Shown one piece after another: positions 44,614 through 57,478 of a stretch of 64,000 bases of DNA. A program made the position numbers and the translations under genes. Below the pieces are notes generated by a model that was not told where the DNA came from, searched no databases, and was given only the letters and a program-made list of their open reading frames with translations. This DNA is from Escherichia phage vB_EcoM_UP17. The stretch is taken from the sequence record LR746137. One strand, 5' to 3'. The first letter of the stretch is position 1; each line of letters begins with the position of its first letter.

Positions 44614-44635
44614 GCAAATGATAATGATTCGCATT
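44614..44635. promoter_or_regulatory. Fur-box-like motif 1
   Basis: GCAAATGATAATGATTCGCAT, 14/19 to GATAATGATAATCATTATC. Confidence 0.35.
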
Positions 44636-44670
44636 TAAGTTTATAAATGAGATTGATTCTTATTTAATAA

Positions 44671-44693
44671 GGTAAATGATAATCATTCTCATT
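44671..44693. promoter_or_regulatory. Fur-box-like motif 2
   Basis: GGTAAATGATAATCATTCTCATT, 16/19 to Fur consensus; 14-mer identical to motif 3. Confidence 0.4.
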
Positions 44694-44923
44694 TAGAGAA
44701 TGACGCGCAGGGGCGGTGTTTGTCTCGCGCTCCCGTGTCCCCTCGCCATGTAATAAGAATAACAGATCCAGCCAGGAAAGCAAGCGATTATTTTATCTTT
44801 ACATTTCTTTACAAATATATAGCGCCCAGCCTACCGGCGATCAACCTTCCAACCAGTGCCCCCCTGGTATGTTAGCCCCGCCTTTACGCCGTGGGGTGGC
44901 GCTTCCTCTTCTGTATGTAAAAC

Positions 44924-44952
44924 AGTATAAGCCCGATCCCTGGGCTTGTCAA
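44924..44952 (-). promoter_or_regulatory. Near-consensus promoter abutting stop of 88-aa gene
   Basis: Minus strand TTGACA, 17 nt spacer, TATACT; no ORF with SD in the downstream ~250 nt. Confidence 0.4.
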
Positions 44953-44954
44953 GA

Positions 44955-45221
44955 TTATTTTTTGTTTTCTTGCCAGGATAGGACACCTAACCAAAAATAC
45001 ATATCGCCCCGCGCCCCTGGTGGTATCTTGCTTTCCCCGCCGCCACTGCAAGCCCATAGATAACCATTTGCGAACGTATCAAAATGATCTATCTCTTCCA
45101 CCTTATGATCGCCCAGGTTGAGAACGGTTTCAACCTTTAAGCCCGTTGCGCTTGCTACCTGGTGCACCGTGCCGCCTTGCCAGCCCAATGAGTGCATAAG
45201 GTGTAATGTAGTATTTGTCAT
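44955..45221 (-). CDS. Hypothetical protein in GC-rich island
   Basis: 88 aa non-repetitive ORF, own promoter, opposite strand to surrounding genes. Confidence 0.35.
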   Translation of the reverse strand: MTNTTLHLMHSLGWQGGTVHQVASATGLKVETVLNLGDHKVEEIDHFDTFANGYLWACSGGGESKIPPGARGDMYFWLGVLSWQENKK

Positions 45222-45268
45222 GGTATCGCCCTTTCTTTGATGTGCGCCCTGGTTGGCGCGGTAGAAAG

Positions 45269-45297
45269 ATGATAGCCCTTTCTTTTATATATAGCAA
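45269..45297 (-). promoter_or_regulatory. Promoter for 88-aa island gene
   Basis: Minus strand TTGCTA, 17 nt spacer, TATCAT. Confidence 0.4.
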
Positions 45298-45330
45298 GTA
45301 AAAAGAAAATAAAAAAGATTGAAAAAGTGA

Positions 45331-45389
45331 TTGACGTTCGCCAGGTGGCGGCATAATATTTACCACGTAGGGCGGCAATGGTGCCGCTC
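45331..45389 (+). promoter_or_regulatory. Promoter-hairpin unit
   Basis: TTGACG-17-TAATAT, then 10 nt, then hairpin GGGCGGCA-ATGG-TGCCGCTC (45370-45389). Confidence 0.55.
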
Positions 45390-45408
45390 ATTATTTGGAG
45401 TTAAAATC

Positions 45409-45606
45409 ATGGCAACATTGCACATTGTGGCGAAAGCTGGACAAATAAACGTGGTAGTAAACGGTTTTACTGAGTTCAGTCATCCCCAGGATGATCATGA
45501 AACGGTTTTATCTTTCATTGATTCACTGTTAGAAATGGGAGTAATTACAGAAGACCAGCACGCTACAAAATGCAAACGCGTTAATCAGATTGCAGGAATA
45601 GAATAA
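45409..45606 (+). CDS. Early small protein
   Basis: ATG 45409 after GGAG; track start 45331 is TTG inside -35. Confidence 0.5.
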   Translation: MATLHIVAKAGQINVVVNGFTEFSHPQDDHETVLSFIDSLLEMGVITEDQHATKCKRVNQIAGIE

Positions 45607-45612
45607 AAAGTA

Positions 45613-45675
45613 TTGACAACAACCAACAACCTGATAAGATGTATCACATAGGGCGGCGGAATGGTCCAGCCGCTC
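45613..45675 (+). promoter_or_regulatory. Promoter-hairpin unit
   Basis: TTGACA-16-TAAGAT, hairpin 45651-45675 with AATGGT loop. Confidence 0.5.
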
Positions 45676-45698
45676 ACAACAGAAGAGAGATTATAATC

Positions 45699-45971
45699 AT
45701 GGCATCATATAGCGCAACAATGATCGTAGCTGGCACCACTGGTAAACCTATGAGCGGTGGCGGATCTTTCGCAAATATCAACATCGACGGGCGTTTATCC
45801 CTGGACGCAGCGATCACCGTGGCGCGGGAAACATTTAAGAAAGAATGTAAATTCAATAAACAAGATTATCTCGGTTTTGCTATTGAAAAAACCGCGCGCT
45901 TTGTTGATTATAAAAGCCCGAAAATGGTTGATACTACACTAAAAGCGCAAGATGTAGCATTTTTGCTTTAA
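45699..45971 (+). CDS. Early small protein
   Basis: ATG 45699 downstream of hairpin. Confidence 0.5.
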   Translation: MASYSATMIVAGTTGKPMSGGGSFANINIDGRLSLDAAITVARETFKKECKFNKQDYLGFAIEKTARFVDYKSPKMVDTTLKAQDVAFLL

Positions 45972-45974
45972 GGT

Positions 45975-46030
45975 TTGACATTAGCGAATAATTTACTAAT
46001 ATGTTGCATAAGGCGGGAATAGTTCCCGCT
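45975..46030 (+). promoter_or_regulatory. Promoter-hairpin unit
   Basis: TTGACA-16-TAATAT, hairpin GCGGGAA-TAG-TTCCCGC. Confidence 0.5.
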
Positions 46031-46047
46031 ATTTGTAAGGTGGTAGA

Positions 46048-46305
46048 ATGTTTTACATCAAATTAAAAGGTCACGTGATCGCGTTCAAAGATAACGCTTT
46101 TTACAGATTAGCAAAATATGCGTTAATACATCCCCACTATGTTTATATAAGGGGGCGTGATGAAATAAATATCTTTGATCAAACAACATGCGAGAACATC
46201 GAGATCCGCAAGGTTGGCGTACGTGATTATCGTACATCTTTCTACCCTTGCAAAGATTCCGCAAGTCTTTTTAAAGTATGCCAATTGTTGAAAAAAGGTG
46301 GTTAA
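46048..46305 (+). CDS. Early small protein
   Basis: 85 aa, SD AAGGTGG. Confidence 0.5.
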   Translation: MFYIKLKGHVIAFKDNAFYRLAKYALIHPHYVYIRGRDEINIFDQTTCENIEIRKVGVRDYRTSFYPCKDSASLFKVCQLLKKGG

Positions 46306-46306
46306 T

Positions 46307-46864
46307 ATGGGCCGCGAATATGTGATCCAGTCTTGGGTAAAACATGAAGCAGATGATCCGCGCATCATTCCCGATCATCTTATCGATGAATCCACGGGGT
46401 ATAGCGGTGAGCAAATAGGTAACAGATTAGCACGTAGTAACGGCAACGTAAAAGCGCGTTATTTGCGCCCTGGCTGGCTGGCAAATGGTAACGCTGATTT
46501 ATCCAGTGCGGAAGATGCGAGCGACGGCGCGAAAGATAATCCTTTGTACAAAGTTGATCCGGCTTTTCGTGTCCTGGATGAATACCCCAGCAAGATAGCG
46601 GCGCTTGATGAAGCACTGGAAAGTAAGCGCATCACCTGGACCGCTTACAACATGGCAAAAAACGTACTTGATGGTAAATTGATTCAAGCCGAAAGAAAAT
46701 TAGCCAAAATTGCAGCCATAGCCCAGGAGGAAGACGAGGAGACAACGGAAGAGGAAGAGTACGAAGAGATCCCGCCGTTGTTGTGTGTTGATGCTTTTCC
46801 TGATTATCAGCCGACAGAGGAAGAAAAAAGGATCGCACTAGAAAACTTTGAAAATAGTCTTTGA
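46307..46864 (+). CDS. Early protein with acidic C-terminal region
   Basis: ATG 46307 after AGGTGG; EDEETTEEEEYEE. Confidence 0.5.
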   Translation: MGREYVIQSWVKHEADDPRIIPDHLIDESTGYSGEQIGNRLARSNGNVKARYLRPGWLANGNADLSSAEDASDGAKDNPLYKVDPAFRVLDEYPSKIAALDEALESKRITWTAYNMAKNVLDGKLIQAERKLAKIAAIAQEEDEETTEEEEYEEIPPLLCVDAFPDYQPTEEEKRIALENFENSL

Positions 46865-46919
46865 CATATCGCCGCCACTAGCATAATATTTACCACGTAG
46901 GGCGGCAATGGTGCCGCTC
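46861..46919 (+). promoter_or_regulatory. Promoter-hairpin unit
   Basis: TTGACA overlapping upstream stop, 17 nt, TAATAT, hairpin 46900-46919. Confidence 0.5.
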
Positions 46920-46946
46920 ATAGTGAAATTATACAAGAGGCTTACA

Positions 46947-47042
46947 ATGATTAATAAAGAAAATAGCTTGACGGTTGGAACGATTAACGCTATCATTCTA
47001 GCCGTTCCATTTTGGATTGTAGTGGCGGTTATTATTTTCTAA
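46947..47042 (+). CDS. Hydrophobic micro-peptide (31 aa), not in ORF track
   Basis: ATG after AAGAGG; MINKENSLTVGTINAIILAVPFWIVVAVIIF. Confidence 0.3.
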   Translation: MINKENSLTVGTINAIILAVPFWIVVAVIIF

Positions 47043-47051
47043 AAAATATTC

Positions 47052-47112
47052 TTGACAACGTTTTTTAATCTGATAAGATGTGTCACATAGGGCGGCGGAA
47101 TACTTCCCCGCC
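47052..47112 (+). promoter_or_regulatory. Promoter-hairpin unit
   Basis: TTGACA-16-TAAGAT, imperfect hairpin 47090-47112. Confidence 0.5.
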
Positions 47113-47133
47113 AAAACAAAAAAGGGTAACACA

Positions 47134-47496
47134 ATGAGCAAGCAAATCAATACTATCATGTTTAATCTGGTATCTTTCCGCGATGATATGAAAAATTTAC
47201 CACGTGAAACGGTTGATATTCATGTTTCAGCTTATCGCGCCCTTATTGATATGTTACCGCTAAAACGTGATCAACATGCCGCTAATATGATGCTTAATGC
47301 TATGCTTAAAAAGATGATTCAAACGGATCTTACTCTGGCGTATGAGTATCAAGGGCGCTTATATGCTACTTACAACAAAGCGGTACCTGGTCTGGGAAGT
47401 ACCGAAGAGTTGCACGGCTTAAACCTGGATCAAAACAATTGGGATAGTATGCGCCGCGTTATGGTATGGGCCGAAAGCGGTAAAATTTACGAATAA
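47134..47496 (+). CDS. Early small protein
   Basis: ATG 47134 after AAGGG; track GTG start lies in hairpin. Confidence 0.5.
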   Translation: MSKQINTIMFNLVSFRDDMKNLPRETVDIHVSAYRALIDMLPLKRDQHAANMMLNAMLKKMIQTDLTLAYEYQGRLYATYNKAVPGLGSTEELHGLNLDQNNWDSMRRVMVWAESGKIYE

Positions 47497-47502
47497 AAAC
47501 GG

Positions 47503-47559
47503 TTGACACTGTTTAAAATTCTGGTATAGTTTATCACGTAGGGCGGCAATGGTGCCGCC
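47503..47559 (+). promoter_or_regulatory. Promoter-hairpin unit
   Basis: TTGACA-16-TATAGT, hairpin 47541-47559. Confidence 0.5.
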
Positions 47560-47579
47560 AACAATAAAAGGTTAACATC

Positions 47580-47759
47580 ATGGCTATCATTGCAAAAACT
47601 GAGATTATAGGTTTAGATTCGATCCTCCTGGCTTATGAGGAAACTTTAAAAATGTATGTAGTGACCTATGGTGATTATGTGCGTGAATACGAATACATTG
47701 ATCTTGCTTTCGAATGTTACATTAGCCAGGTCAATAAAGCCTATAACGATTATCGTTAA
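47580..47759 (+). CDS. Early small protein (59 aa), not in ORF track
   Basis: ATG after AAAAGG; frame anchored to flanking track genes. Confidence 0.4.
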   Translation: MAIIAKTEIIGLDSILLAYEETLKMYVVTYGDYVREYEYIDLAFECYISQVNKAYNDYR

Positions 47760-47778
47760 AAGTTTTAGTCTTATACTA

Positions 47779-47830
47779 TTGACAATGAGTGATAGTATAA
47801 GCATAATAACTTTTATCGGGAATACTTCCC
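47779..47830 (+). promoter_or_regulatory. Promoter-hairpin unit
   Basis: TTGACA-17-CATAAT, hairpin GGGAA-TAC-TTCCC. Confidence 0.5.
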
Positions 47831-47856
47831 ACTAACCAAAAAGAGAGAGTGACACC

Positions 47857-48222
47857 ATGGCTATTAATATCAATGTTTCCGCTTATGCTACCCTGGCTGA
47901 CACGGCTAAAATTGAATTATCCAGCATTGAGGCGGTGCATATTAGCGCCCGTCGCTGGTTTCAACAGTCCTACGGTAACACATATTTTTCTTTAAGCGTG
48001 GACGTTGAGATCGGCGGTAAACTGATCGAAGTGGTTAACGTGCCGTTTCAATATGGTTATGGTGATCATTTTGATACCGTCGCTATGGAAGAATTTAGCA
48101 AGGTTGTTGACCTGGAAGGCAAGGAATTTTCACGCGGCGCGTATCTTTCCCGTTTTTGCCGTGACAATGGGATCACTGTATACAGTCATGCAAGCGATGT
48201 TAAACGTAAAAAAGATTTATAA
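47857..48222 (+). CDS. Early small protein
   Basis: 121 aa, SD AGAGAGAG. Confidence 0.5.
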   Translation: MAININVSAYATLADTAKIELSSIEAVHISARRWFQQSYGNTYFSLSVDVEIGGKLIEVVNVPFQYGYGDHFDTVAMEEFSKVVDLEGKEFSRGAYLSRFCRDNGITVYSHASDVKRKKDL

Positions 48223-48228
48223 AAGTAG

Positions 48229-48287
48229 TTGACAGCACGAATAAAAAGCGTAAAATGTTTTATATCGAGAGCGGGAATAGTTCCCGC
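48229..48287 (+). promoter_or_regulatory. Promoter-hairpin unit
   Basis: TTGACA-16-TAAAAT, hairpin GCGGGAA-TAG-TTCCCGC. Confidence 0.5.
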
Positions 48288-48312
48288 CTCACTGAAAAAA
48301 GAGATTAACATC

Positions 48313-48552
48313 ATGGCTAAATCTAAAATGTATAACGGTCACAAAAACAAAACTCATTGGAATGTAAGCCTTTGGATTAATAACGATGAGTCATTATACC
48401 GCACCGCGAAAGAATTTATTAGTTATAATTCTAACCGTAATGATGCGGCGTGTGATATGATGCTATTCCTGGAACAGATTGGACAAGATAAAACACCGGA
48501 CGGATTCAAGTATAGTAAAACTGCAATCCGCGCCGCGATGGTTGGAATGTAA
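48313..48552 (+). CDS. Early small protein
   Basis: ATG 48313 after AAGAGA. Confidence 0.5.
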   Translation: MAKSKMYNGHKNKTHWNVSLWINNDESLYRTAKEFISYNSNRNDAACDMMLFLEQIGQDKTPDGFKYSKTAIRAAMVGM

Positions 48553-48561
48553 TAAAAACAG

Positions 48562-48616
48562 TTGACAACGTTTAAAATTAGTGTAAGATGTATCACATAG
48601 GGGCGACAAGCGCCCC
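48562..48616 (+). promoter_or_regulatory. Promoter-hairpin unit
   Basis: TTGACA-16-TAAGAT, hairpin GGGGCG-ACAAG-CGCCCC. Confidence 0.5.
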
Positions 48617-48638
48617 TCCTAACGAAGAGAGAAAAATC

Positions 48639-48866
48639 ATGGCTATCAATATTGTTCGCGTATCCGGCACCGTTGGCACTTCCCAGGTTATTGCAGTTGT
48701 AACAAACAAAAAGATTAATGATGTATGTGAGATCTTGAATAAGTGGGCTGTTGCTAATTTTGGGGAATATGCAAGCGTCGAGTACATCGAATCCTACCAG
48801 GTGCCAACCATCAGCCTGACCGATCTCAACGTTGATCGCCTGTTATGCCTGGATGAATTAATCTGA
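48639..48866 (+). CDS. Early small protein
   Basis: ATG 48639 after GAAGAGAGA. Confidence 0.5.
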   Translation: MAINIVRVSGTVGTSQVIAVVTNKKINDVCEILNKWAVANFGEYASVEYIESYQVPTISLTDLNVDRLLCLDELI

Positions 48867-48875
48867 AAAAGATTG

Positions 48876-48933
48876 TTGACACCGGAAAGAAAAAGAGTAA
48901 ACTGTATTACGTAGGGCGGCAATGGTGCCGCTC
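48876..48933 (+). promoter_or_regulatory. Promoter-hairpin unit
   Basis: TTGACA-16-TAAACT, hairpin GGGCGGCA-ATGG-TGCCGCTC. Confidence 0.5.
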
Positions 48934-48956
48934 ACAACAGAAGAGAGATTATCACG

Positions 48957-49169
48957 ATGGCTAATATCCGCACACTGTTAAAAAATGCAAGTCAAGTTTT
49001 ATTTTCAGATGACGAGTATTTCAATAAAGACATTACAGGCGTGAAGAATATCAAAGATGTAAAAAGTGTTATGGGTATATATTGCAATGTTAAACGTGTT
49101 GGAACGTTCGGTGATAAAGTATTGTACCAATCAGGTGATTACAATTTTACTTTGACGATTATTTCATAA
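48957..49169 (+). CDS. Early small protein
   Basis: 70 aa, SD AGAAGAGAG. Confidence 0.5.
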   Translation: MANIRTLLKNASQVLFSDDEYFNKDITGVKNIKDVKSVMGIYCNVKRVGTFGDKVLYQSGDYNFTLTIIS

Positions 49170-49174
49170 AACGC

Positions 49175-49235
49175 TTGCAATACTGCAAAATAAAGTAAAC
49201 TGTATTACATCAAGGCGGCGGAATGGTCCACCGCC
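49175..49235 (+). promoter_or_regulatory. Promoter-hairpin unit (weaker promoter)
   Basis: TTGCAA then TAAACT-like, hairpin 49212-49235 with AATGGT loop. Confidence 0.4.
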
Positions 49236-49259
49236 TAACAAAGAGAAGAGGAAAATATC

Positions 49260-49427
49260 ATGATCACTTTCGCTACCCGTGAAGCCGCTCGCAACGTTGC
49301 ACGTAAAGTTAACGCCGCCAACCTGGGCGCTACTTTTAAAGCCCCGGTGAAAGATGAATCAGGCAAATGGATCTTCCCTGGTCTGCGTCACGCTGATAAG
49401 CTAGGCACTTTAAGCCTTAAAAAATAA
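49260..49427 (+). CDS. Early small basic protein (55 aa), not in ORF track
   Basis: ATG after AGAGAAGAGG; begins MITFA like the next gene. Confidence 0.4.
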   Translation: MITFATREAARNVARKVNAANLGATFKAPVKDESGKWIFPGLRHADKLGTLSLKK

Positions 49428-49430
49428 TCG

Positions 49431-49468
49431 TTGACTTTTCGTTATAGCGCCTTATAATGGGCGCTATA
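49431..49468 (+). promoter_or_regulatory. Promoter with -10 hexamer inside a 9-bp hairpin loop
   Basis: TTGACT-16-TATAAT; TATAGCGCC and GGCGCTATA pair around loop TTATAATG. Confidence 0.45.
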
Positions 49469-49501
49469 GAGAAGAGAAACCACTACTGACAAGGAAACAC
49501 C

Positions 49502-49723
49502 ATGATCACTTTCGCTATTGTCGCCGTTGTTGCTGGTCAAGTTTACGTAAACGATACATTCACCACAGAAGACAAGGCCGCAGGAGACATAACCGCCGTT
49601 TACAATGAGTGCAAGGCAGTAGAAAGGATGTTAGCGCCTTGTATGTTAATGAGTGAACGCCAGGACGGGATAACAGTGTTTACTAACATTGAGACAGGGT
49701 ACCAAATGGTAGTAACAAAATAA
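49502..49723 (+). CDS. Early small protein
   Basis: 73 aa, N-terminus MITFA shared with 49260 ORF. Confidence 0.5.
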   Translation: MITFAIVAVVAGQVYVNDTFTTEDKAAGDITAVYNECKAVERMLAPCMLMSERQDGITVFTNIETGYQMVVTK

Positions 49724-49726
49724 AGC

Positions 49727-49784
49727 TTGACACGGATTTAATTTTCAGTAAACTGTTACACGTAGGGCGGGAATAGTTCCCGCT
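49727..49784 (+). promoter_or_regulatory. Promoter-hairpin unit
   Basis: TTGACA-16-TAAACT, hairpin GCGGGAA-TAG-TTCCCGC. Confidence 0.5.
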
Positions 49785-49801
49785 AAAAAGAGAGAAAGAC
49801 C

Positions 49802-50155
49802 ATGAAAGCACAAAATGCAATTAAAGAGTACATCCTTGCCGCTATCGATTTTAATGATTACGGTATTACAACCGAAAAAGAGAAGATCGCGGAATTGATG
49901 CGCCGTTTTAATTCCGAGTACTGGTACCCTGATAACCAATCACGTTTTAATTATAGTATTGTTAAAGCACTTGCATCATGGTTACAAGGTTTGCCATCAG
50001 ATATTAATATCGCTTTCGAATATTGGGAAATTGATCGCTTGTTAACATCCTGGGGATACATTAAAGAGAATAGCAGCGATGATAAAATCCAACGAGAAAG
50101 GGAAAATTATTGGCTTTATATTGCAGGCGTGATCCTTGCTTGCTCTTATGAATGA
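49802..50155 (+). CDS. Early small protein
   Basis: 117 aa, SD AGAGAGAAAG. Confidence 0.5.
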   Translation: MKAQNAIKEYILAAIDFNDYGITTEKEKIAELMRRFNSEYWYPDNQSRFNYSIVKALASWLQGLPSDINIAFEYWEIDRLLTSWGYIKENSSDDKIQRERENYWLYIAGVILACSYE

Positions 50156-50161
50156 TAAACC

Positions 50162-50215
50162 TTGACAATTTTACAAAACAGTTTAAATTAATAATATAGC
50201 GGCAATGGTGCCGCT
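50162..50215 (+). promoter_or_regulatory. Promoter-hairpin unit
   Basis: TTGACA-16-TAAATT, hairpin AGCGGCA-ATGG-TGCCGCT. Confidence 0.5.
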
Positions 50216-50234
50216 CATATAAAGAGGAAACAAA

Positions 50235-50381
50235 ATGAATACATCTAATCGCGCAGAAAAAATTCAATCTTCCAAGATCCGTAAGGCCTGGAATGAGGAA
50301 GTGATCCGCAAAGGCGACAAGCGCAATAAAACAAAGCGCGGGAAGAGTGACAAATATAATTGGATGGATTTAGAGGATTAA
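50235..50381 (+). CDS. Small basic protein (48 aa), not in ORF track
   Basis: ATG after AAGAGG; Lys/Arg-rich. Confidence 0.35.
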   Translation: MNTSNRAEKIQSSKIRKAWNEEVIRKGDKRNKTKRGKSDKYNWMDLED

Positions 50382-50389
50382 CATAACAA

Positions 50390-50415
50390 GGGCGCACCAA
50401 GCGCCCTTTCTTTTT
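50390..50415 (+). terminator. Rho-independent terminator
   Basis: GGGCGC-ACCAA-GCGCCC then TTTCTTTTT. Confidence 0.6.
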
Positions 50416-50436
50416 ACATGTAGAGGATAAACAAAA

Positions 50437-50622
50437 ATGATTTTAAACGAGCTTAAAACAGCCTACAGCGCAACATTAAAAATAGCCGTGCGTTACCGTG
50501 ACGAATACGGTTTTATCGCGCAGGGCGTGATCCTGGGCTTTTCTGACGATGGTTTGATCTATGTTGATGCACATCACAACAAGGTTAAACCTGAAAACGT
50601 CATTAGCATAAAATATCTTTAA
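50437..50622 (+). CDS. Early small protein
   Basis: 61 aa, SD GAGGATAA. Confidence 0.45.
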   Translation: MILNELKTAYSATLKIAVRYRDEYGFIAQGVILGFSDDGLIYVDAHHNKVKPENVISIKYL

Positions 50623-50628
50623 AAGTGG

Positions 50629-50688
50629 TTGACACCATAACCGGACCTGTTAAACTGTATTACATCAGGCGGGGAATAGTTCCCCACC
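50629..50688 (+). promoter_or_regulatory. Promoter-hairpin unit
   Basis: TTGACA-16-TAAACT, hairpin GGGGAA-TAG-TTCCCC. Confidence 0.5.
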
Positions 50689-50707
50689 ATACAAAAAGGT
50701 AAATATT

Positions 50708-50914
50708 ATGATCACCGCAAAACAAGAAAAAATCATTATCGACGTTGCAGCCGTTGCCGCTATTGCTATTATTGGATCTTATTATGATACCCGTTTCCCG
50801 TCGGCTATGCATGAGGTCGCCGCCGTTGCATCAGTTGGCGTGCTGTTTTACGTTGGTAAACGCTATTTATCACCAATGATTAACAAGCTGACACCGTGGA
50901 AAAATAAAGGTTGA
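50708..50914 (+). CDS. Early small membrane protein
   Basis: 68 aa, hydrophobic core. Confidence 0.5.
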   Translation: MITAKQEKIIIDVAAVAAIAIIGSYYDTRFPSAMHEVAAVASVGVLFYVGKRYLSPMINKLTPWKNKG

Positions 50915-50985: not shown

Positions 50986-51270
50986 ATGAGTAAAGCTAAC
51001 ACCGTGCTAATGTTTTCCCTGGTTAATGATCCCGCTTACTTGTCCAACATGACGCAGGAGGGTGACACATTAACGGCAACATTCACCAATAAGCTTGACC
51101 GAGTGATCATCATCTCACTGAAAACAGTTAGTAAAGGCTTTTACTCGTTAGCTTATCATTGGATCACCGATACCGATGAGACAAGCCAGGACTATAGCGC
51201 CCCTTTCCCTGAATCAATGGCACGGGAGATCATCGCCGCCGTTGTAAATGATGGTTTGTTTACTGCATAA
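50986..51270 (+). CDS. Early small protein
   Basis: ATG 50986 after GAGGATG. Confidence 0.5.
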   Translation: MSKANTVLMFSLVNDPAYLSNMTQEGDTLTATFTNKLDRVIIISLKTVSKGFYSLAYHWITDTDETSQDYSAPFPESMAREIIAAVVNDGLFTA

Positions 51271-51288
51271 AATAATTCAGAAAAAGGC

Positions 51289-51345
51289 TTGCAATCATTT
51301 TGGGATAATGTATATTTAATGCATAGGGCGGCGGGAATAGTTCCC
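51289..51345 (+). promoter_or_regulatory. Promoter-hairpin unit
   Basis: TTGCAA-17-TATATT, hairpin GGGAA-TAG-TTCCC. Confidence 0.45.
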
Positions 51346-51368
51346 AAAGCAAACGAGAGGATTACACG

Positions 51369-51488
51369 ATGAGCAAGTACACAGTAGAATACACGGTAGA
51401 AAATCCGGCAGTATCCGAAGGTAAAAAGATGACATTTGCCATCAGTATAATCGCTTTCGTTGTCACTATCTTATCAATCATCTTATAA
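51369..51488 (+). CDS. Hydrophobic micro-peptide (39 aa), not in ORF track
   Basis: ATG after GAGAGG; C-terminal TM segment. Confidence 0.3.
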   Translation: MSKYTVEYTVENPAVSEGKKMTFAISIIAFVVTILSIIL

Positions 51489-51498
51489 GGTGCACACC

Positions 51499-51678
51499 AT
51501 GAAAACATCAGACGTTATCAAATCATCCAAGATTATTAAAGAGATCGCCCTTGCCACTGGCATTGAGATCGAGGAAGTGATCGCGCTCAATCTTACAGAA
51601 GACAACTTGCGCAGCTATGAAACGGAAAGCGTGAAAGCAAGTGGCGCGATCCTGGCATATAATCCGGCTAACAAATAA
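51499..51678 (+). CDS. Early small protein
   Basis: ATG 51499, 10 nt after previous stop. Confidence 0.45.
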   Translation: MKTSDVIKSSKIIKEIALATGIEIEEVIALNLTEDNLRSYETESVKASGAILAYNPANK

Positions 51679-51679
51679 C

Positions 51680-51734
51680 TTGACAAGCTGAATCAACCTG
51701 ATAAGATGTATCACATAGGGGCGACAAGCGCCCC
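51680..51734 (+). promoter_or_regulatory. Promoter-hairpin unit
   Basis: TTGACA-16-TAAGAT, hairpin GGGGCG-ACAAG-CGCCCC. Confidence 0.5.
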
Positions 51735-51755
51735 GCCTAACAGAGAGATAGAATC

Positions 51756-52034
51756 ATGACCATCACCAAATTATCCACCGAAGAAATCGAACAAGTGCTG
51801 ACTACTAATCTGCAAGATTGGAAGCGTGAAGCAGATTTGCAAGCGGTTTGCAAGCTGAATGCAGAATTAACGGAAAATGATATTGACACTATTGTTAGCC
51901 CCGATTTTTATGATGCTATTCATGATGATTCGATTATCCTTGAAACACTGTTAGATAACACTTGGATCAATCCTGATTTGGCAGCTTATGACCGTAGCGC
52001 CTTTATCACTATCCACAATATTTACAACCGTTAA
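51756..52034 (+). CDS. Early small acidic protein
   Basis: 92 aa, SD AGAGAGATAG. Confidence 0.5.
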   Translation: MTITKLSTEEIEQVLTTNLQDWKREADLQAVCKLNAELTENDIDTIVSPDFYDAIHDDSIILETLLDNTWINPDLAAYDRSAFITIHNIYNR

Positions 52035-52043
52035 GGGGATAAC

Positions 52044-52154
52044 ATGAATCCGAAAGACATGCAAGCCTGGAAAGGGTATGATGATCTAAGCGCCTTGCGC
52101 AATAAGTCAAGCCGTAACCTTAGACGATTGGAAGCAAAGAAAAAGAAAAAATAG
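52044..52154 (+). CDS. Small basic ORF (36 aa), not in ORF track
   Basis: ATG after AAGGGGA; Lys-rich tail. Confidence 0.3.
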   Translation: MNPKDMQAWKGYDDLSALRNKSSRNLRRLEAKKKKK

Positions 52155-52155
52155 T

Positions 52156-52213
52156 TTGACAAGTCCGCGTAGTCTGGTAATATGTATCTTGTAGGGCGGC
52201 AATGGTGCCGCTC
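52156..52213 (+). promoter_or_regulatory. Promoter-hairpin unit
   Basis: TTGACA-16-TAATAT, hairpin GGGCGGCA-ATGG-TGCCGCTC. Confidence 0.5.
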
Positions 52214-52232
52214 ACAAGAAGAGAGAAAAATC

Positions 52233-52517
52233 ATGAAAATCACAAAAAGCCTGACTAATTATGCAGCACGTCGCGGATTATGTTTAACCGTTGAAAACTT
52301 AGGGAAAGAAGACTTTTTGTGTTTTTGGGAGCTTGAGAATGATTGCGAGTGGATGTTTTCTTATTCTATCTGCGAAGATCAAAACGGTTGTTTGTTAACC
52401 TGGCGCGGTAATATCTATTTACCGGAAGAAATTAAAGAAGAGCTACCAGGTACGATCATGACAGAGAGACAGCTTAAGGAAGTGATCAATTTTGTAGGGC
52501 AAAACATTAAAAAATAA
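52233..52517 (+). CDS. Early small protein
   Basis: ATG 52233 after AAGAAGAGAGA. Confidence 0.5.
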   Translation: MKITKSLTNYAARRGLCLTVENLGKEDFLCFWELENDCEWMFSYSICEDQNGCLLTWRGNIYLPEEIKEELPGTIMTERQLKEVINFVGQNIKK

Positions 52518-52518
52518 T

Positions 52519-52581
52519 TTGACAGCAGGCAAACAACGTAGTAAAGTTTATTACATAGAGCGGCGGAATGGTCCACCGCTC
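52519..52581 (+). promoter_or_regulatory. Promoter-hairpin unit
   Basis: TTGACA-17-TAAAGT, hairpin 52558-52581 with AATGGT loop. Confidence 0.5.
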
Positions 52582-52602
52582 ACAACAGAAGAGAAACAAA
52601 TC

Positions 52603-52773
52603 ATGATCCCGACTATGTTTTATGTATCGCGCAAAGGTCACAATATTTTTTGGTCTGAAGATTTAAATGAAGCTATGACGTTTGCCCGTGATCGTGTTGC
52701 TATCGGTGGCGTTAACATCACCGTAACCGATGAAAATGGTATTGAATACTATAACGGCGACGATGAAGAATAA
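52603..52773 (+). CDS. Early small protein
   Basis: ATG 52603 after AGAAGAGAAA. Confidence 0.5.
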   Translation: MIPTMFYVSRKGHNIFWSEDLNEAMTFARDRVAIGGVNITVTDENGIEYYNGDDEE

Positions 52774-52810
52774 TTGACAACCTGAAAGCTGTATTTTTAA
52801 AATACAGCTT
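52774..52810 (+). promoter_or_regulatory. TTGACA followed by perfect 8-bp hairpin
   Basis: AAGCTGTA-TTTTTAAAA-TACAGCTT directly after a -35-like hexamer. Confidence 0.35.
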
Positions 52811-52831
52811 AGAAAATGTAGTAAATAAACC

Positions 52832-52893
52832 TTGACAATGGTTTGTTATCTGGTAAAGTGTACTACGTAGGGCGGGGCAATGGTGCAACGCCC
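52832..52893 (+). promoter_or_regulatory. Promoter-hairpin unit (variant hairpin)
   Basis: TTGACA-16-TAAAGT, hairpin GGGCGGGGCAATGGTGCAACGCCC. Confidence 0.45.
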
Positions 52894-52911
52894 ATTAATG
52901 AGGGTAGAATC

Positions 52912-53016
52912 ATGTTAGAGAAAATTTTCACGGTTGCAGTGGTTGGCCTGGCGTTATCGGTTGGAGTAGTTGCAACTATGGCTAACATGATCCTATCTTC
53001 CCACGGTATCGGTTAA
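52912..53016 (+). CDS. Hydrophobic micro-peptide (34 aa), not in ORF track
   Basis: ATG after GAGGG; single TM-like segment. Confidence 0.3.
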   Translation: MLEKIFTVAVVGLALSVGVVATMANMILSSHGIG

Positions 53017-53026
53017 GGTGAAACAA

Positions 53027-53242
53027 ATGATCACGAACAAAACAGGCAAAACGGAATTTTTACGCGGCTTACAAGTTGGTAAGCCTGAGATCTGGCATTG
53101 CACGAAGTCCGCGCATAATGAAATGAAAGATTTCACCGCTACTTTACAACGTGTTAAAATATCTATTACGCAGAAAAAAGCCTTATTAGTAGTAGAAAAC
53201 GAGATCCCGCAAACTATTATTATTGTCGAGCGTACAGCATGA
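53027..53242 (+). CDS. Early small protein
   Basis: ATG 53027 after AAGGTG. Confidence 0.45.
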   Translation: MITNKTGKTEFLRGLQVGKPEIWHCTKSAHNEMKDFTATLQRVKISITQKKALLVVENEIPQTIIIVERTA

Positions 53243-53625
53243 AAACAGAAATCATTATTGAAATCATCAACGGCTATAAAGAAGCCTTTATTTTTGCTGA
53301 ATCAGCAAGGGATCATGAAGGTAATTTTATTGATAACTTAGACGATTATGATTTTTCTCCTAGTGCGGATCAACGGATCGCCCAGGATGTAACAGTCTTT
53401 ATTAATGCTAATCTTGCCGCTATCTCTGAGGCAATGAGCGACGGCGCAACAGCCAACCAGATCGGGAATGATTTACATTTTACCCGTAACAGTCACGGCG
53501 TAGGCTTTTGGGATCGCCCTGAAATATACACCACTAACACGGCGAACCGCCTAACCAATGCAGCTAAGTTTATGCCGAACGTGTCGGCTTACATTGGTGA
53601 AGATAATTTGATTTATATTGAATAA
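53239..53625 (+). CDS. Early protein
   Basis: 128 aa, ATGA overlap with upstream gene. Confidence 0.5.
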   Translation: MKTEIIIEIINGYKEAFIFAESARDHEGNFIDNLDDYDFSPSADQRIAQDVTVFINANLAAISEAMSDGATANQIGNDLHFTRNSHGVGFWDRPEIYTTNTANRLTNAAKFMPNVSAYIGEDNLIYIE

Positions 53626-53631
53626 AAAGTA

Positions 53632-53689
53632 TTGACACAGATCGCCAGTGTGCTAATATTTACCACGTAGGGCGGCAATGGTGCCGCTC
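53632..53689 (+). promoter_or_regulatory. Promoter-hairpin unit
   Basis: TTGACA-16-TAATAT, hairpin GGGCGGCA-ATGG-TGCCGCTC. Confidence 0.5.
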
Positions 53690-53708
53690 CCCGAAAAAGG
53701 TAAACATT

Positions 53709-53900
53709 ATGAAAACCATCTCCTACCTGGAATCGAATAACATGTTTTTTGCGCCCGTTGATGAAATCATCGAAGCATTAAACAACGAGGAAGGGATCAA
53801 AGGTTTATCTTATAGCCAACTTTTAGGAATGGTTGCAGCAAATGAAGAGCTTGCTTACTATGTTGAAAATTTTGATGAAGCTGTAATCTTTACAAAATAA
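53709..53900 (+). CDS. Early small acidic protein
   Basis: 63 aa, SD AAAAAGG. Confidence 0.5.
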   Translation: MKTISYLESNNMFFAPVDEIIEALNNEEGIKGLSYSQLLGMVAANEELAYYVENFDEAVIFTK

Positions 53901-53903
53901 TCC

Positions 53904-53960
53904 TTGATCTAATCTCTTAGATAACTTATATTTAATGTGTAGGGCGGCAATGGTGCCGCC
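53904..53960 (+). promoter_or_regulatory. Promoter-hairpin unit
   Basis: TTGATC-17-TATATT, hairpin GGGCGGCA-ATGG-TGCCGCC. Confidence 0.5.
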
Positions 53961-53978
53961 GATAACGAGGAAAGTAAA

Positions 53979-54278
53979 ATGGAAACTATCGCTATTGTTA
54001 CCGTAGAAAAGCTGGTTGTTGGTGATGTATTCGCGTTAATGGTGCCTAACAGCAGCAAGCTGGGCGCTTATGAAGTAATGGATCATAAAAATGAATCATT
54101 TGGCGACGGTTGCACAATGGCGGTAAAATCTTTAAAGGATGGAATCATCCGCCAGGCTAACTGGCACAAAGGGAATCAAGTCGGTTTAATATCAGCTAAT
54201 TTCTTGCCAGAAGAGCAAACGTTAGACCAACTATCAGGCGGTAAGACGTTAGCCGAACTACTGGAAACAGCGATCTAA
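53979..54278 (+). CDS. Early small protein
   Basis: 99 aa, SD GAGGAAAG. Confidence 0.5.
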   Translation: METIAIVTVEKLVVGDVFALMVPNSSKLGAYEVMDHKNESFGDGCTMAVKSLKDGIIRQANWHKGNQVGLISANFLPEEQTLDQLSGGKTLAELLETAI

Positions 54279-54286
54279 TCAACAAA

Positions 54287-54302
54287 GGGGCGGCAACGCC
54301 CC
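54287..54302 (+). promoter_or_regulatory. Leader hairpin with GCAA tetraloop, no obvious promoter
   Basis: GGGGCG-GCAA-CGCCCC, 20 nt before ATG 54323. Confidence 0.4.
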
Positions 54303-54322
54303 ACATCAGAAAGGAAAAGATT

Positions 54323-54559
54323 ATGAGTATTGCAACAGTATTAACCGCCGTTAAAACCGCTGAATCATCCGGCTTGCATGTTGAGCTTATAGATCAACCA
54401 GGTGGCGATCTCCTTGTCCAGGTTTACCCGCCGAAAGTAGGGGATGATCATTATTGGTGTTATTCTGATACGTTCGAACAAGTAGACACGAAAGCGATCA
54501 CAACCTTTATTTTAAAAGCCGTTGAAGAAAATAACTTTCATTATAACATCAATCAATAA
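54323..54559 (+). CDS. Early small protein
   Basis: 78 aa, SD AAAGGAAAAG. Confidence 0.5.
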   Translation: MSIATVLTAVKTAESSGLHVELIDQPGGDLLVQVYPPKVGDDHYWCYSDTFEQVDTKAITTFILKAVEENNFHYNINQ

Positions 54560-54569
54560 ACCATAAGCA

Positions 54570-54584
54570 GGGCGGTAACGCCCC
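54570..54584 (+). promoter_or_regulatory. Leader hairpin with GTAA tetraloop
   Basis: GGGCG-GTAA-CGCCC upstream of ATG 54614. Confidence 0.4.
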
Positions 54585-54613
54585 ATTAAACGCAATAGGA
54601 AGAGGATAGACGT

Positions 54614-54898
54614 ATGAAAAAGATGATCGCAGTAGTTGCCCTGGTTGTTGGTATTAACGCGCCTACACTGGCTAATGAGTTGCCAGAATCCATCACGCTA
54701 ACCGACATCAACGCAGTGAATCGGATCGGTGTTAATTATCGCCTATGCCTTGCCGCTAAAACTTTCCAGGACGGCACGACAGAGTACTACGGATTCGAGG
54801 GTATCCGCTGCGGTGAGCTTGCACGCGACCTTAAGGAAGATCCAGACCTTGAGGCCATACCGATGACCGTAAACGGTAAAGCCCACGTAAACCGCTAA
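54614..54898 (+). CDS. Secreted small protein
   Basis: Signal peptide MKKMIAVVALVVGINAPTLA. Confidence 0.5.
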   Translation: MKKMIAVVALVVGINAPTLANELPESITLTDINAVNRIGVNYRLCLAAKTFQDGTTEYYGFEGIRCGELARDLKEDPDLEAIPMTVNGKAHVNR

Positions 54899-54900
54899 CC

Positions 54901-55035
54901 ATGAGAAAGGTAATCATCACAATGGGGATCGTAGTAGCAACGCTGGCGCTTATCCCTTTCATGGTTGAACATGTGCTGATCAGTGTTGTCCTTATAGTCA
55001 GTGACCTATTGGAAACGGTTGGCACCTGGTTTTAA
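54901..55035 (+). CDS. Hydrophobic micro-peptide (44 aa, or 37 aa from internal ATG 54922), not in ORF track
   Basis: Two hydrophobic segments; weak SD; terminator follows. Confidence 0.3.
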   Translation: MRKVIITMGIVVATLALIPFMVEHVLISVVLIVSDLLETVGTWF

Positions 55036-55043
55036 GATAATAA

Positions 55044-55070
55044 ATAGGGCTTGCAATAGTCCTATTTTTT
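55044..55070 (+). terminator. Rho-independent terminator
   Basis: ATAGGGC...GTCCTAT stem then TTTTTT. Confidence 0.5.
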
Positions 55071-55209
55071 GTTATACTTGTTGAACGGGCGGCACCTGGG
55101 AGCAGGGGAAGATAATCACCGGAAGACTCCGCTATATATTGATAACTAACGCCTATCAAACAACAAAACATCAAAGGAACAAACTATCAAATCTTTACAA
55201 TTCCACCTA

Positions 55210-55270
55210 TTGACACCGGATCACGCTTACACTATTATTTATCACGTAGGGCGAGCAATACAGCAAGCCC
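55210..55270 (+). promoter_or_regulatory. Promoter with degenerate hairpin
   Basis: TTGACA-17-TATTAT; GGGC...GCCC short stem at 55249-55270. Confidence 0.45.
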
Positions 55271-55287
55271 ACAAAGAGGAAAATAAA

Positions 55288-55656
55288 ATGAGCAAATCAG
55301 CAATTAAAGCACTTGAAAAAGCACAAAAAGTGATCGCCACTTCCACCACTGGCACAAGTATTAATCTGGTCGCTTACTTGGAAGATGAAACTATCCGTAA
55401 AAATTGGCGTAATGCTGATTTACTGGCTTGCTTATTGATTAATAGTGTCGCTAATGCTTTCCAGTGTGAAACAGCCGAGAGCCTAGAGGAAAACTTGTTT
55501 GATAATATGGATCAAGCCATTGAAACCTATATACAATCAAACCTGGATAACTGGAACAGTAAAACATGGCCCGACAATTTACGCGATACAACTGATCAAC
55601 TGATCCGCCTTGCCCTGATGGTTGAACGCGATAACATTCACAACCGCACAAAGTAA
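55288..55656 (+). CDS. Early protein
   Basis: ATG 55288 after AAGAGGAAAA. Confidence 0.5.
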   Translation: MSKSAIKALEKAQKVIATSTTGTSINLVAYLEDETIRKNWRNADLLACLLINSVANAFQCETAESLEENLFDNMDQAIETYIQSNLDNWNSKTWPDNLRDTTDQLIRLALMVERDNIHNRTK

Positions 55657-55713
55657 GATTATACAAGGGCGCACTAAGCGCCCTTTAACGTAAAGAAATG
55701 TAAATAATGCGCT

Positions 55714-55750
55714 ATCCCCTATTGACAGGGGATCGGCGTTATATTATATT
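55714..55750 (+). promoter_or_regulatory. Promoter whose -35 sits in the loop of a 7-bp inverted repeat
   Basis: ATCCCCT-ATTGAC-AGGGGAT; TTGACA 55722-55727, TATAT-rich -10 about 17 nt on. Confidence 0.4.
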
Positions 55751-55795
55751 TAACTCACTGGCAGCAAACAACGAAACGAAACAAAGGACAACACC

Positions 55796-56215
55796 ATGAA
55801 CATTAAATCAAATAATCCAGCTTACTCCTTCGACAACGCTTTTTGTCACGGTAGCGCCGCTAAAGGATTCGAAATCGATGGTAAATTGGTTATCGTGAAC
55901 GTTGACGGGGAAGAGGTTGCAGTATATCCGGTAAACGATGTTAAAAGCCGTTTACAATGCCGCATGGATGTTACCGCATATCAGCTTGATCCGATCCGTG
56001 TAGTTGCCCTGGTATTAGAGGAAGAGATCAAAGCAATGCATCACAGCAATAAGTTTATTGGTGACGCGCAGGATAATATGAACGTTTGCCGCCATAAAGT
56101 TAATGAAGCCTTGAAAGAGTATGGTTTTAAGGATCTGATGATTAAACGTGATGAAAAATTCCGCTTTCGTAATGACCTGGCAAACCGGATCTACTCAATC
56201 TATGAAGCGTTATAA
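55796..56215 (+). CDS. Early protein
   Basis: 139 aa, SD AAAGGACAA. Confidence 0.5.
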   Translation: MNIKSNNPAYSFDNAFCHGSAAKGFEIDGKLVIVNVDGEEVAVYPVNDVKSRLQCRMDVTAYQLDPIRVVALVLEEEIKAMHHSNKFIGDAQDNMNVCRHKVNEALKEYGFKDLMIKRDEKFRFRNDLANRIYSIYEAL

Positions 56216-56230
56216 TTGACAACAAAACAA

Positions 56231-56257
56231 GGGGCGCACCAAGCGCCCTTTCTTTTT
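56231..56257 (+). terminator. Rho-independent terminator closing the early array
   Basis: GGGGCGC-ACCAA-GCGCCC then TTTCTTTTT. Confidence 0.6.
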
Positions 56258-57028
56258 GCCCGAACAATGTTGATAGCTTTCGCCTATGAAAAACCGACAC
56301 AGAACAAAATTGAATAAATCGCGGTATCGAGCTAATCAACCATTAAACGAATAACCATACCTCCCAGGGTAACAGGCTGTTAGAGAGCCATTTAAAGCGG
56401 TTAAAATCGATCAACAACCAACAACAAACCATCAAAAACACCCTTTTACCTCCTTTCTAGTGCAATGATAACCATTATCATCTATCCATGTTTATCTATG
56501 CAATATAAGTGCATAACTATAATGTTGATAATAGTTCGCAACAACTAACTAACCAACAACCTAAAACAATAAGCAAACTAATCATAATCAAAGGAATAAT
56601 AGCAAGATGATTGATAACGACAAACAATCAAACCATGATGAATACTAAGCAAGATAACGATAACACGACAAAACAACCAACTAACGAACAATAACAAACG
56701 AAACCATTAAAATAACAACTATTAGCAAAATAGTGCCTGAATGAAATCATTACAAAACGAATCATTCACAGAGTCATCATTAGCACGCTATGCCGGACAC
56801 ATAGCGAGCTAATAATAAGCCAACTACACCCCAACAATCATAACCATCGGTGATGGTTATTTCTTGTTACTGCGTAGCTTGCAATAATTGCAAGCGTAAT
56901 TACGCTTACACTTATTGCGCTGGCTTATTATTAGCATTATATGTAATTACTGAGATCATAACATTAGCGCAATAACAATAATCATTGTGGTAATTACGTA
57001 AGGAAACAATTAGCATGGCAATAATTAT

Positions 57029-57176
57029 GGGGGCAATGGGAGGATGATTATCATCATTCCGATACATTGCACACTATGCACATAATGAGATAAAAAGCAA
57101 TACTTTTGGGGGCGAAATGTTACCGCCACAGGCGGGAATGTTGAGCACTAAGAAAAGAGCAAATATTACGGGGGCG
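57029..57176. repeat. Three iteron-like GGGGGC(G/A)A direct repeats
   Basis: GGGGGCA at 57029, GGGGGCG at 57108 and 57170, each in TNNGGGGGCNAAT context. Confidence 0.45.
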
Positions 57177-57275
57177 AATACTATCGCTACGCGATATGTT
57201 AAGCACCTTCTCTTAAACGTAAATAAAATCAGAAAATTCTTGATTTATTTTGGCTTTTATGTTAATAAACGTTTA

Positions 57276-57296
57276 AATAATAATCATTCTCATATA
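57276..57296. promoter_or_regulatory. Fur-box-like motif 3
   Basis: AATAATAATCATTCTCATATA; ATAATCATTCTCAT identical to motif 2. Confidence 0.35.
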
Positions 57297-57453
57297 AATA
57301 ATAGTCTGCTTGTCATGAGCGGGATCAGTTGACAGTGTTCCGTCATATGATGAAGTTGCCAACCCCTTGATAAATAAGTGTTTGTGTGATTTATAATCAA
57401 GTGGCCCACCTTGTCGCTACGTTGGCATGAAGCTTGCATAAGTCATTGAATAC

Positions 57454-57478
57454 GAATGATAATTATTCTCATTCGCAT
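57454..57478. promoter_or_regulatory. Fur-box-like motif 4
   Basis: GAATGATAATTATTCTCATTCGCAT. Confidence 0.35.

Follow-up and report, generated by a model that had tools for sequence, protein, structure and literature searches.

A family of palindromes resembling Fur boxes flanks the early-gene array in a stretch of 64,000 nucleotides from Escherichia phage vB_EcoM_UP17 (sequence record LR746137), which is called the window below and is numbered from its first letter. The described systems closest to it are the Fur boxes of temperate phages, the Fur operators of the E. coli chromosome, the injection-stop region of phage T5 and the iterons of plasmids and phages. A Fur box is present in the stx1 promoter on a temperate phage. 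In the searchable literature, phage Fur boxes were found only for the sit operon (sitABCD morons) of lambdoid prophages (PMC6969025), and nothing relevant was returned by literature searches on such boxes in virulent phages, in T5 or in Phapecoctavirus. The boxes of temperate phages are likewise host Fur sites on phage DNA, but they lie at the promoters of cargo that benefits the lysogen, whereas the sites described here belong to a virulent phage, have no iron gene next to them and form part of the core architecture.

With the chromosomal Fur operators of E. coli (fhuA, entC, fhuF, fecI and sodA) the phage sites share the 19-bp inverted repeat, the range of scores, the clustering and the overlaps at a 6-bp offset. 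They differ in position, the phage boxes being found beside non-coding modules and in the terminal repeat and not at iron-uptake promoters. They also differ in arrangement: in contrast to the usual Fur polymer with 6-bp overlaps, four units follow one another in regular 29-bp tandem phasing.

Repeat Region 3 of T5, the injection-stop region with palE to palJ and the DRC repeats, has arrays of the same palindrome, located inside terminal repeats and at the inner boundary of a terminal block of small early genes. The boundary placement is shared by the array at 44588-44693, for which the distance to the inferred end of the genome is about 12.9 kb. In T5 the region contains DnaA boxes, paired and set in inverted repeats (Davison, bioRxiv 10.1101/866236); Fur is not mentioned in that analysis. 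Neither the paired DnaA boxes nor the DRD repeats, the nick site and the A1 and A2 proteins were found in this phage, and the DnaA box pattern TTWTNCACA was absent from 44000-45400 and 56200-57850. Because DnaA boxes and A1/A2 are absent, the phage is not a member of the T5 injection-stop system as now defined. Plasmid and phage iterons are likewise tandem, regularly spaced protein-binding repeats beside AT-rich repeats, but the units of this phage are palindromic and match a host repressor, and neither an annotated initiator gene nor a DnaA box is found nearby. No GC-skew shift that would mark an origin was seen at either border.

Positions 44000-58000 were about 95% identical to Escherichia phage tuntematon and other Phapecoctavirus genomes (megablast). 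Judged by sequence, the source of the window is a phAPEC8-like E. coli myovirus of Phapecoctavirus (Stephanstirmvirinae), which is virulent and has a genome of about 150 kb. The reading preferred here, to which a probability of roughly 0.6 was assigned, is that the palindromes are operators of the host Fur protein and not a phage-specific signal, and that they would make a few boundary transcripts iron-responsive.

Palindromic sites and their similarity to Fur operators

The original prediction had named four related sites in the non-coding zones on both sides of the array. All four are present, namely S1 at 44616-44636 (AAATGATAATGATTCGCATTT), S2 at 44674-44694 (AAATGATAATCATTCTCATTT), S3 at 57275-57295 (AAATAATAATCATTCTCATAT) and S4 at 57454-57474 (GAATGATAATTATTCTCATTC), and they do lie in non-coding zones, which extend over 44146-45330 and 56252-57814. 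The identical 14-mer reported for two of the sites, ATAATCATTCTCAT, occurs in exactly two copies, at 44679 and 57280, and the match of 16 out of 19 positions to the 19-bp Fur consensus was reproduced for the best site at 44672-44690. The proposed common core GATAAT(C/G)ATTCTCAT is exact in S2, while the other three sites deviate from it at 1-2 positions.

Each site is a 9-1-9 inverted repeat, and the general unit, equivalent to a site for one Fur dimer, can be written as AATGAnAAT-N-ATTnTCATT. In the example AAATGATAAT-C-ATTCTCATTT, 18 of 21 positions are self-complementary, and this palindrome differs at one position from a unit of the Fur '7-1-7' motif TGATAATnATTATCA. A repeat finder and a matrix scan extended the family beyond four members, adding a fifth strong site at 56464-56482 and weaker units at 44588-44606 and 44646-44664. 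Secondary sites at 44611, 44669 and 57449 overlap the strong sites at 44617, 44675 and 57455 with an offset of 6 bp. When up to two mismatches were allowed, the 14-mer had 7 matches against 1.38 expected, a number reached in 0 of 100 shuffles.

An independent Fur matrix was prepared from 12 DNase-footprinted Fur regions of E. coli K-12, the coordinates of which were taken from Table 3 of PMC2189734 (Chen et al. 2007). The footprint sequences were drawn from NC_000913.3 after correction of version offsets against gene starts. A symmetric 19-mer was searched for by expectation maximization (EM) with 150 random starts, and phage sequence was excluded from the construction of the matrix. The resulting consensus ATTGATAATCATTATCAAT (16.8 bits) corresponds to the single-dimer 'M9' model of PMC2189734.

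The five best matches of this matrix in the window were those at 44675 (23.1 bits), 57455 (21.1 bits), 44617 (20.8 bits), 57276 (18.3 bits) and 56464 (17.8 bits), the first being the best site of the genome. The same five sites also took the top five ranks in the whole 150-kb genome of tuntematon. The next-ranked matches were likewise located in the two zones, at 44646 (14.7 bits), 57449 (14.3 bits), 44611 (13.0 bits), 44588 (12.6 bits) and 44669 (12.1 bits). With a uniform background the phage sites scored 14.1-25.9 bits (20.0-25.9 bits for the top five), compared with 12.6-26.2 bits for the footprinted host sites, most of which were between 17 and 26 bits. The fhuA promoter (TATAATAATCATTCTCGTT), which had been held out and is verified by gel shift, scored 19.5 bits. 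In 30.5 kb of E. coli DNA, every match of at least 15 bits fell within a known Fur-regulated promoter region, so that there were zero false positives. Near-identical stretches were shared by S3 and fhuA (AATAATCATTCTC, a 13-mer), by S2 and entC (AAATGATAATCATT) and by S1 and fhuF (AAATGATAATGATT). The Zur box consensus GAAATGTTATAnTATAACATTTC was also compared and was rejected, with 9-11 mismatches in 22 positions at every site.

Such matches were far more frequent than expected for AT-rich DNA of this composition. Five matches of at least 16 bits were observed against 0.10 in simulated sequence, with a maximum of 2 in 200 Markov simulations. Simulations with the composition of the zones gave 0.0045 matches of at least 17 bits, against five observed, and 0.04 matches of at least 14 bits. 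The two zones account for 4.3% of the window, yet they contained all 7 matches of at least 14 bits (binomial P = 3e-10). In 1.0 Mb of unrelated viral contigs, there was no match of at least 18 bits and 1 of at least 14 bits. Overlapping sites in E. coli Fur clusters are offset by 6 bp (PMC2189734), and the 6-bp-offset pairs of the phage fit this criterion. At the level of sequence, the phage sites thus qualify as Fur operators. The Fur-box identity put forward in the original prediction is strongly supported by these results, since a matrix made from footprints only ranks the sites first in the phage genome.

The two borders of the array

In the left array, four palindromic units follow one another with a period of exactly 29 bp (starts at 44587, 44616, 44645 and 44674 in the repeat finder). 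Unit a (44588-44606; AATGAGAAGAGTTCTCATA) is the first and weakest of the phased units, with 14.1 bits on a uniform background, and belongs to direct-repeat family D1. It is followed by unit b, which is S1 (44617-44635; AATGATAATGATTCGCATT) and has its overlapping site 6 bp upstream, by unit c (44646-44664; AATGAGATTGATTCTTATT) and by unit d, which is S2 (44675-44693; AATGATAATCATTCTCATT). Unit d adjoins module A (44695-44760, minus strand), a GC-rich, non-coding segment with a near-invariant core, GGTGnTTGTCTC, that is always found beside the proximal Fur box.

In sensitive BLAST searches with 44150-45330, a stretch that begins with the Fur array and extends to about 44920 had matches far outside the genus, at 68-76% identity, which is unusually high for these phages; for module A the identity in distant phages was 70-76%. 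Matches were obtained in phi92-like phages, in Klebsiella and Serratia Stephanstirmvirinae and in Vequintavirinae including rV5, PVP-SE1, CR3 and 4MG, and the first 55 bp of the conserved stretch also matched T5-like phages. The common layout comprises 1-6 Fur boxes, the GC-rich module A, an AT-rich linker, module B and a promoter on the opposite strand, P1, with a second promoter, P2, just upstream of module A. Fourteen loci were examined from two subfamilies, Stephanstirmvirinae and Vequintavirinae, in phages of Escherichia, Salmonella, Klebsiella and Cronobacter. The centre of the proximal box was 29-31 bp from the module A core in all 14 (31 bp here). Further boxes in the 29-bp phase, at -60, -89 and -118, were present in this phage, tuntematon, Cronobacter phage CR3, Klebsiella phage FBKp34 and one IMG/VR contig. 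The number of boxes varied from 1 to 6 per locus, and almost nothing else at these loci reached 14 bits. In rV5 the Fur box and module A are tandemly duplicated.

A segment of 50 bp containing units c and d (44645-44694) is exactly inverted in the approximately 95% identical tuntematon (3645-3694). The palindromic units themselves form the borders of the inversion, pointing to an origin by recombination or by template switching between inverted repeats. As an inversion is acceptable for symmetric protein sites and not for directional elements, it was counted in favour of protein-binding sites.

The candidate strong sigma-70 promoter P1 (44924-44965, minus strand; hexamers from 44952 to 44924) reads TTGACA-17-TATACT, matches the consensus at 11 of 12 positions and has an A-tract upstream. 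An equivalent of the form TTGACA/TTGCAA-17/18-TAnAnT occurs in all related loci. The candidate sigma-70 promoter P2 (44756-44783, minus strand) is a consensus reading, TTGCTT-16-TATTCT, and its hexamers keep their position in tuntematon, PVP-SE1, FBKp34 and rV5. Both promoters point toward the Fur array, P1 through modules B and A and P2 through module A. On the minus strand, a 9-bp hairpin (44704-44682) takes its 3' arm and its U-tract from half of the unit d box and could serve as a weak terminator of transcripts from P2 or P1. Unit a overlaps TTTACA-17-GAAAAT, a consensus-level match in AT-rich DNA.

Module A was also considered as coding sequence, and this was rejected: an open reading frame is annotated there in rV5, but a stop in the window and a 1-nt indel in comparison with FBKp34 disrupt its frame. 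Because stops and frameshifts differ between phages, module A is taken to be non-coding. Rfam gave no match at E <= 1 in 44000-58500. RNAalifold detected essentially no covariation in the minus-strand region of P1 and P2 (8 sequences) or in module A (14 sequences), and as this covariation is not meaningful, a structured RNA is not claimed. A scan of IMG/VR with the module A core pattern gave 120 loci with 8 true homologues, and the remainder were reused as background.

Some further features were noted at the left border. AT-rich direct repeats at 44364-44575 (a 72-nt repeat in two copies and a 34-nt repeat in three, rich in TTTACAAAA and AAAGTTTA) lie on the far side of the Fur array. They contain several weak promoter-like matches and are conserved in close relatives only. 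An identical 15-mer, GTAAAGAAATGTAAA, occurs at 44798-44812 on the minus strand, just upstream of P2, and at 55690-55704 on the plus strand, ahead of the promoter that serves the last array gene. It matches the CpxR-type direct repeat GTAAA-N5-GTAAA (2 matches against 0.32 expected), and the left copy is kept in PVP-SE1, FBKp34, phi92 and CR3. As the left module also bears host-type sites of this kind, it resembles a region that responds to host regulators. At 44908-44926, over the -10 hexamer of P1, the sequence TCTGTATGTAAAACAGTAT contains CTGT-N8-ACAG, by eye a LexA-type box, which was seen only in Phapecoctavirus sequences.

At the right border, a terminal repeat of 328 bp has been reported for the related phage Schickermooser (Korf et al., PMC6563267). 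The ends of the Schickermooser record are an exact repeat of 329 bp, which maps to positions 57202-57530 of the window, and many Phapecoctavirus records start or end at about 57529. By this homology, we infer that 57202-57530 is the direct terminal repeat of the virion DNA and that the early array forms its right-terminal 13 kb or so. S3 (57276-57294; AATAATAATCATTCTCATA) and S4 (57455-57473; AATGATAATTATTCTCATT) are both inside the repeat, so the packaged linear DNA should carry the pair at both ends. S4 is 57 bp from the right boundary of the repeat. S5 (56464-56482; AATGATAACCATTATCATC) lies outside the repeat, about 210 bp beyond the terminator of the last array gene.

Both boundaries of the repeat (57198-57206 and 57527-57535) read GTTA|AGCAC, and the right copy is kept in relatives of 78% and 58% identity. 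This is probably a motif at which terminase cuts or nicks. A third, degenerate boundary copy, GTTGAGCAC, was noted about 60 bp upstream, at about 57139-57150.

Conservation in related phages, by which the idea of functional operators had been proposed to be checked, was found at this border. The positions of S5, S3 and S4 keep boxes of 15-21 bits while their flanks diverge (phiWec186, 78% identity; JohannJBalmer, 58%). Two boxes are present at the S5 position in the Justusliebigvirus JohannJBalmer, and S4 has one additional GATAAT hexamer in relatives. S4 overlaps the -10 hexamer of TTGCAT (57434-39)-18-GATAAT (57458-63), and S3 begins directly after TTGATT-17-TAATAA; as readings of the promoter consensus, the two are weak.

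Occurrence in T5 and other phage lineages

The first 12 kb of T5 (NC_005859) were scanned with the same matrix. Matches of 18.7, 23.1, 16.8 and 17.5 bits were obtained at 9552-9715, inside the annotated injection-stop signal (9140-10149). They lie on both sides of the calculated first-step shear point at 9618, and the major nick at 9748 is about 35 bp away. In 551 phage records the array of T5 was conserved, usually in 2-4 places each. The T5-like phage pork29 had at least 6 matches of 16.5-22 bits in its left terminal repeat (1041-1561), and a stretch of 28 nt, comprising unit b and flanking sequence, was identical between the window and a unit of this terminal repeat. The motif is thus common to Demerecviridae, Vequintavirinae and Stephanstirmvirinae. 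None of the 17 left-end proteins of T5 (16 encoded in the terminal repeat and T5.018) had a tblastn match with E <= 0.01 in the window or in tuntematon.

The record of the rV5-like phage phiWec189 starts 1 bp before a Fur box of 19.9 bits, with Fur-matrix sites at 2-26 and 138-156. By sequence, an element composed of Fur boxes and module A may be at or near the genome end in rV5-like phages. About 20 of the records matched by BLAST, alongside rV5-like and phAPEC8-like Escherichia phages, were labelled 'Campylobacter phage' with the host C. jejuni; these are probably mislabelled or contaminant genomes.

Candidate binding protein and alternative readings

The early-gene array (45331-56215, plus strand) contains about 32 small genes according to the annotation of a relative and the list of open reading frames. 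It is preceded by the left zone, which holds one small minus-strand open reading frame (44955-45221), and is followed by the right gene-free zone of 1.6 kb; both zones are AT-rich (37% GC). Most intergenic spacers of the array have a near-consensus sigma-70 promoter, TTGACA-17-TAnAnT. In the spacers between 45607 and 55795, this promoter is followed by a conserved stem-loop (GTAGGGCGGCAATGGTGCCGC and variants), so that a cassette of promoter and stem-loop stands before most array genes. These cassettes resemble the mobile promoter and stem-loop cassettes described in T4-type phages.

The original prediction had proposed iron- and Fur-responsive control of early transcription, and in this form the proposal was not supported. 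The sigma-70 promoters of the array are without the motif: no Fur-like motif was found in its intergenic promoter spacers, and the best match within the array, 13.0 bits at 53461, is in coding sequence. A global control of the array by Fur is thus unsupported. The boxes sit beside the array and not at its promoters.

With regard to the binding protein, no Fur homologue was found in the phage (tblastn, best E = 5). As none is encoded and no pre-early protein of T5 is shared, a host factor common to the lineages that bear the motif is indicated. Since host Fur is abundant and the sites match its best operators, the simplest expectation is that Fe2+-Fur binds to them. The boxes would then be occupied by Fe2+-Fur when the cell is replete with iron and free when it is starved of iron. 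Bound Fur would occlude weak promoters, with S4 over a -10 hexamer, S3 just past a putative start and unit a over another -10 hexamer, and it would block or terminate transcripts from P1 and P2 where they reach the phased array. Iron-responsiveness would thereby be conferred on a few transcripts, non-coding ones or those of the boundaries, and the bulk of early transcription would proceed independently of Fur from its own promoters. During replication of the genome, about 9 or more strong sites per copy would draw on the Fur pool.

Several points weigh against the reading as host Fur operators. It rests wholly on sequence, and the promoters were assigned by their match to the consensus in DNA that is AT-rich. 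The left boxes are downstream of the best-supported promoters, P1 and P2, which is not the classical geometry of Fur repression. The terminal repeat comes from a relative and not from reads of this phage. As unit d combines a hairpin with a U-tract, part of its conservation could be at the RNA level, and the homologous boxes of T5, lying in a region without a known promoter, point to a non-transcriptional role. Nor is it evident what a virulent phage would gain by tying its terminal repeat or the transcripts of its boundaries to the iron status of the cell.

A use of the boxes as a decoy is possible, though unlikely. At least 9 high-affinity sites on each replicating genome would titrate Fur and de-repress iron uptake for the benefit of phage enzymes, and ribonucleotide reductases of both the aerobic and the anaerobic type are indeed encoded by the phage. 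That Fur can be titrated by Fur boxes in multiple copies is well established and is the basis of the Fur titration assay (FURTA). The many strong, clustered sites per genome, which are doubled by the terminal repeat, would suit a sponge, as would the presence of the array in both long terminal repeats of T5-like phages, and the box number of relatives varies freely between 1 and 6, as if dosage and not geometry counted. A sponge, however, requires neither the fixed distance of 29-31 bp to module A nor the 29-bp phasing that is kept across subfamilies, the sites are confined to two specific borders instead of being scattered, and de-repression late in the lytic cycle may come too late to supply useful iron. 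More doubtful is a role in DNA entry, in which arrays bound by Fur or another protein would delimit the terminal segment that enters or acts first, in analogy with the injection-stop region of T5, or would function in the recognition of ends. A terminal segment with small early genes, some 12.9 kb long (about 8.6% of roughly 150 kb), is enclosed by the boxes, two of which are in the terminal repeat; the T5 boxes flank the shear point within the injection-stop signal; the 28 nt identical to a T5-like repeat unit and the phiWec189 record that begins at a Fur box fit as well. Yet no homologue of A1, A2 or any other protein from the first 12 kb of T5 was found, DnaA boxes are absent from both zones, and two-step injection is not known outside T5-like phages. 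The terminal repeat is moreover 329 bp long here, compared with about 10 kb, and its ends have a distinct motif of their own. The same reserve applies to the wider proposal that large virulent phages of enterobacteria (T5-, rV5- and phAPEC8/phi92-like) have Fur-box arrays in common as a boundary element, at which a Fur nucleoprotein block would delimit the terminal, first-expressed segment.

The original prediction had also offered operators for a phage regulator. A phage-encoded DNA-binding protein with a specificity resembling that of Fur would agree with the clustering of palindromic sites in early-gene control regions, as for phage repressor operators, and most small proteins of the phage are without known function, but the evidence disfavours this idea and it is quite improbable. 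The motif occurs in three lineages between which no common pre-early proteins were detected, the phage encodes no protein of the Fur family, and the match to a matrix derived from the host equals that of the best host sites, to which abundant host Fur would bind in any case. Least credible of all is an effect of chance and composition, or of hairpins acting purely at the RNA level as terminators. The low GC content of the zones and the hairpin and U-tract of unit d speak for it, but the simulated frequencies given above do not come near the five observed matches of at least 17 bits. Moreover, the consensus fold of 14 homologues showed only the box palindrome without compensatory changes, most boxes are not followed by a U-tract, and conservation is at the sequence level, beyond pairing potential. 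Chance is effectively refuted by the simulations, the viral background, the relatives and the 14 loci. Some titration of Fur by replicating genomes is physically unavoidable, and titration, a boundary role and a phage-encoded binder are not mutually exclusive, the last being unlikely.

For operators of host Fur at top strength in the core architecture of a virulent phage, as the sequences here suggest for both borders of the early region, the terminal repeat and a non-coding module conserved across subfamilies, no prior description was found. If the arrays do act as a boundary element, Fur would be part of the long-unidentified injection-stop signal of T5, and entry or expression of the right-terminal 13 kb or so of the present phage would be staged. 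If Fur binds, it would be a concrete candidate for the host factor that recognises the injection-stop region of T5. Infection may then rewire the host iron regulon through titration of Fur, and the iron status of the host, which is a key variable in the gut and during infection, would feed into the programme of therapy phages.

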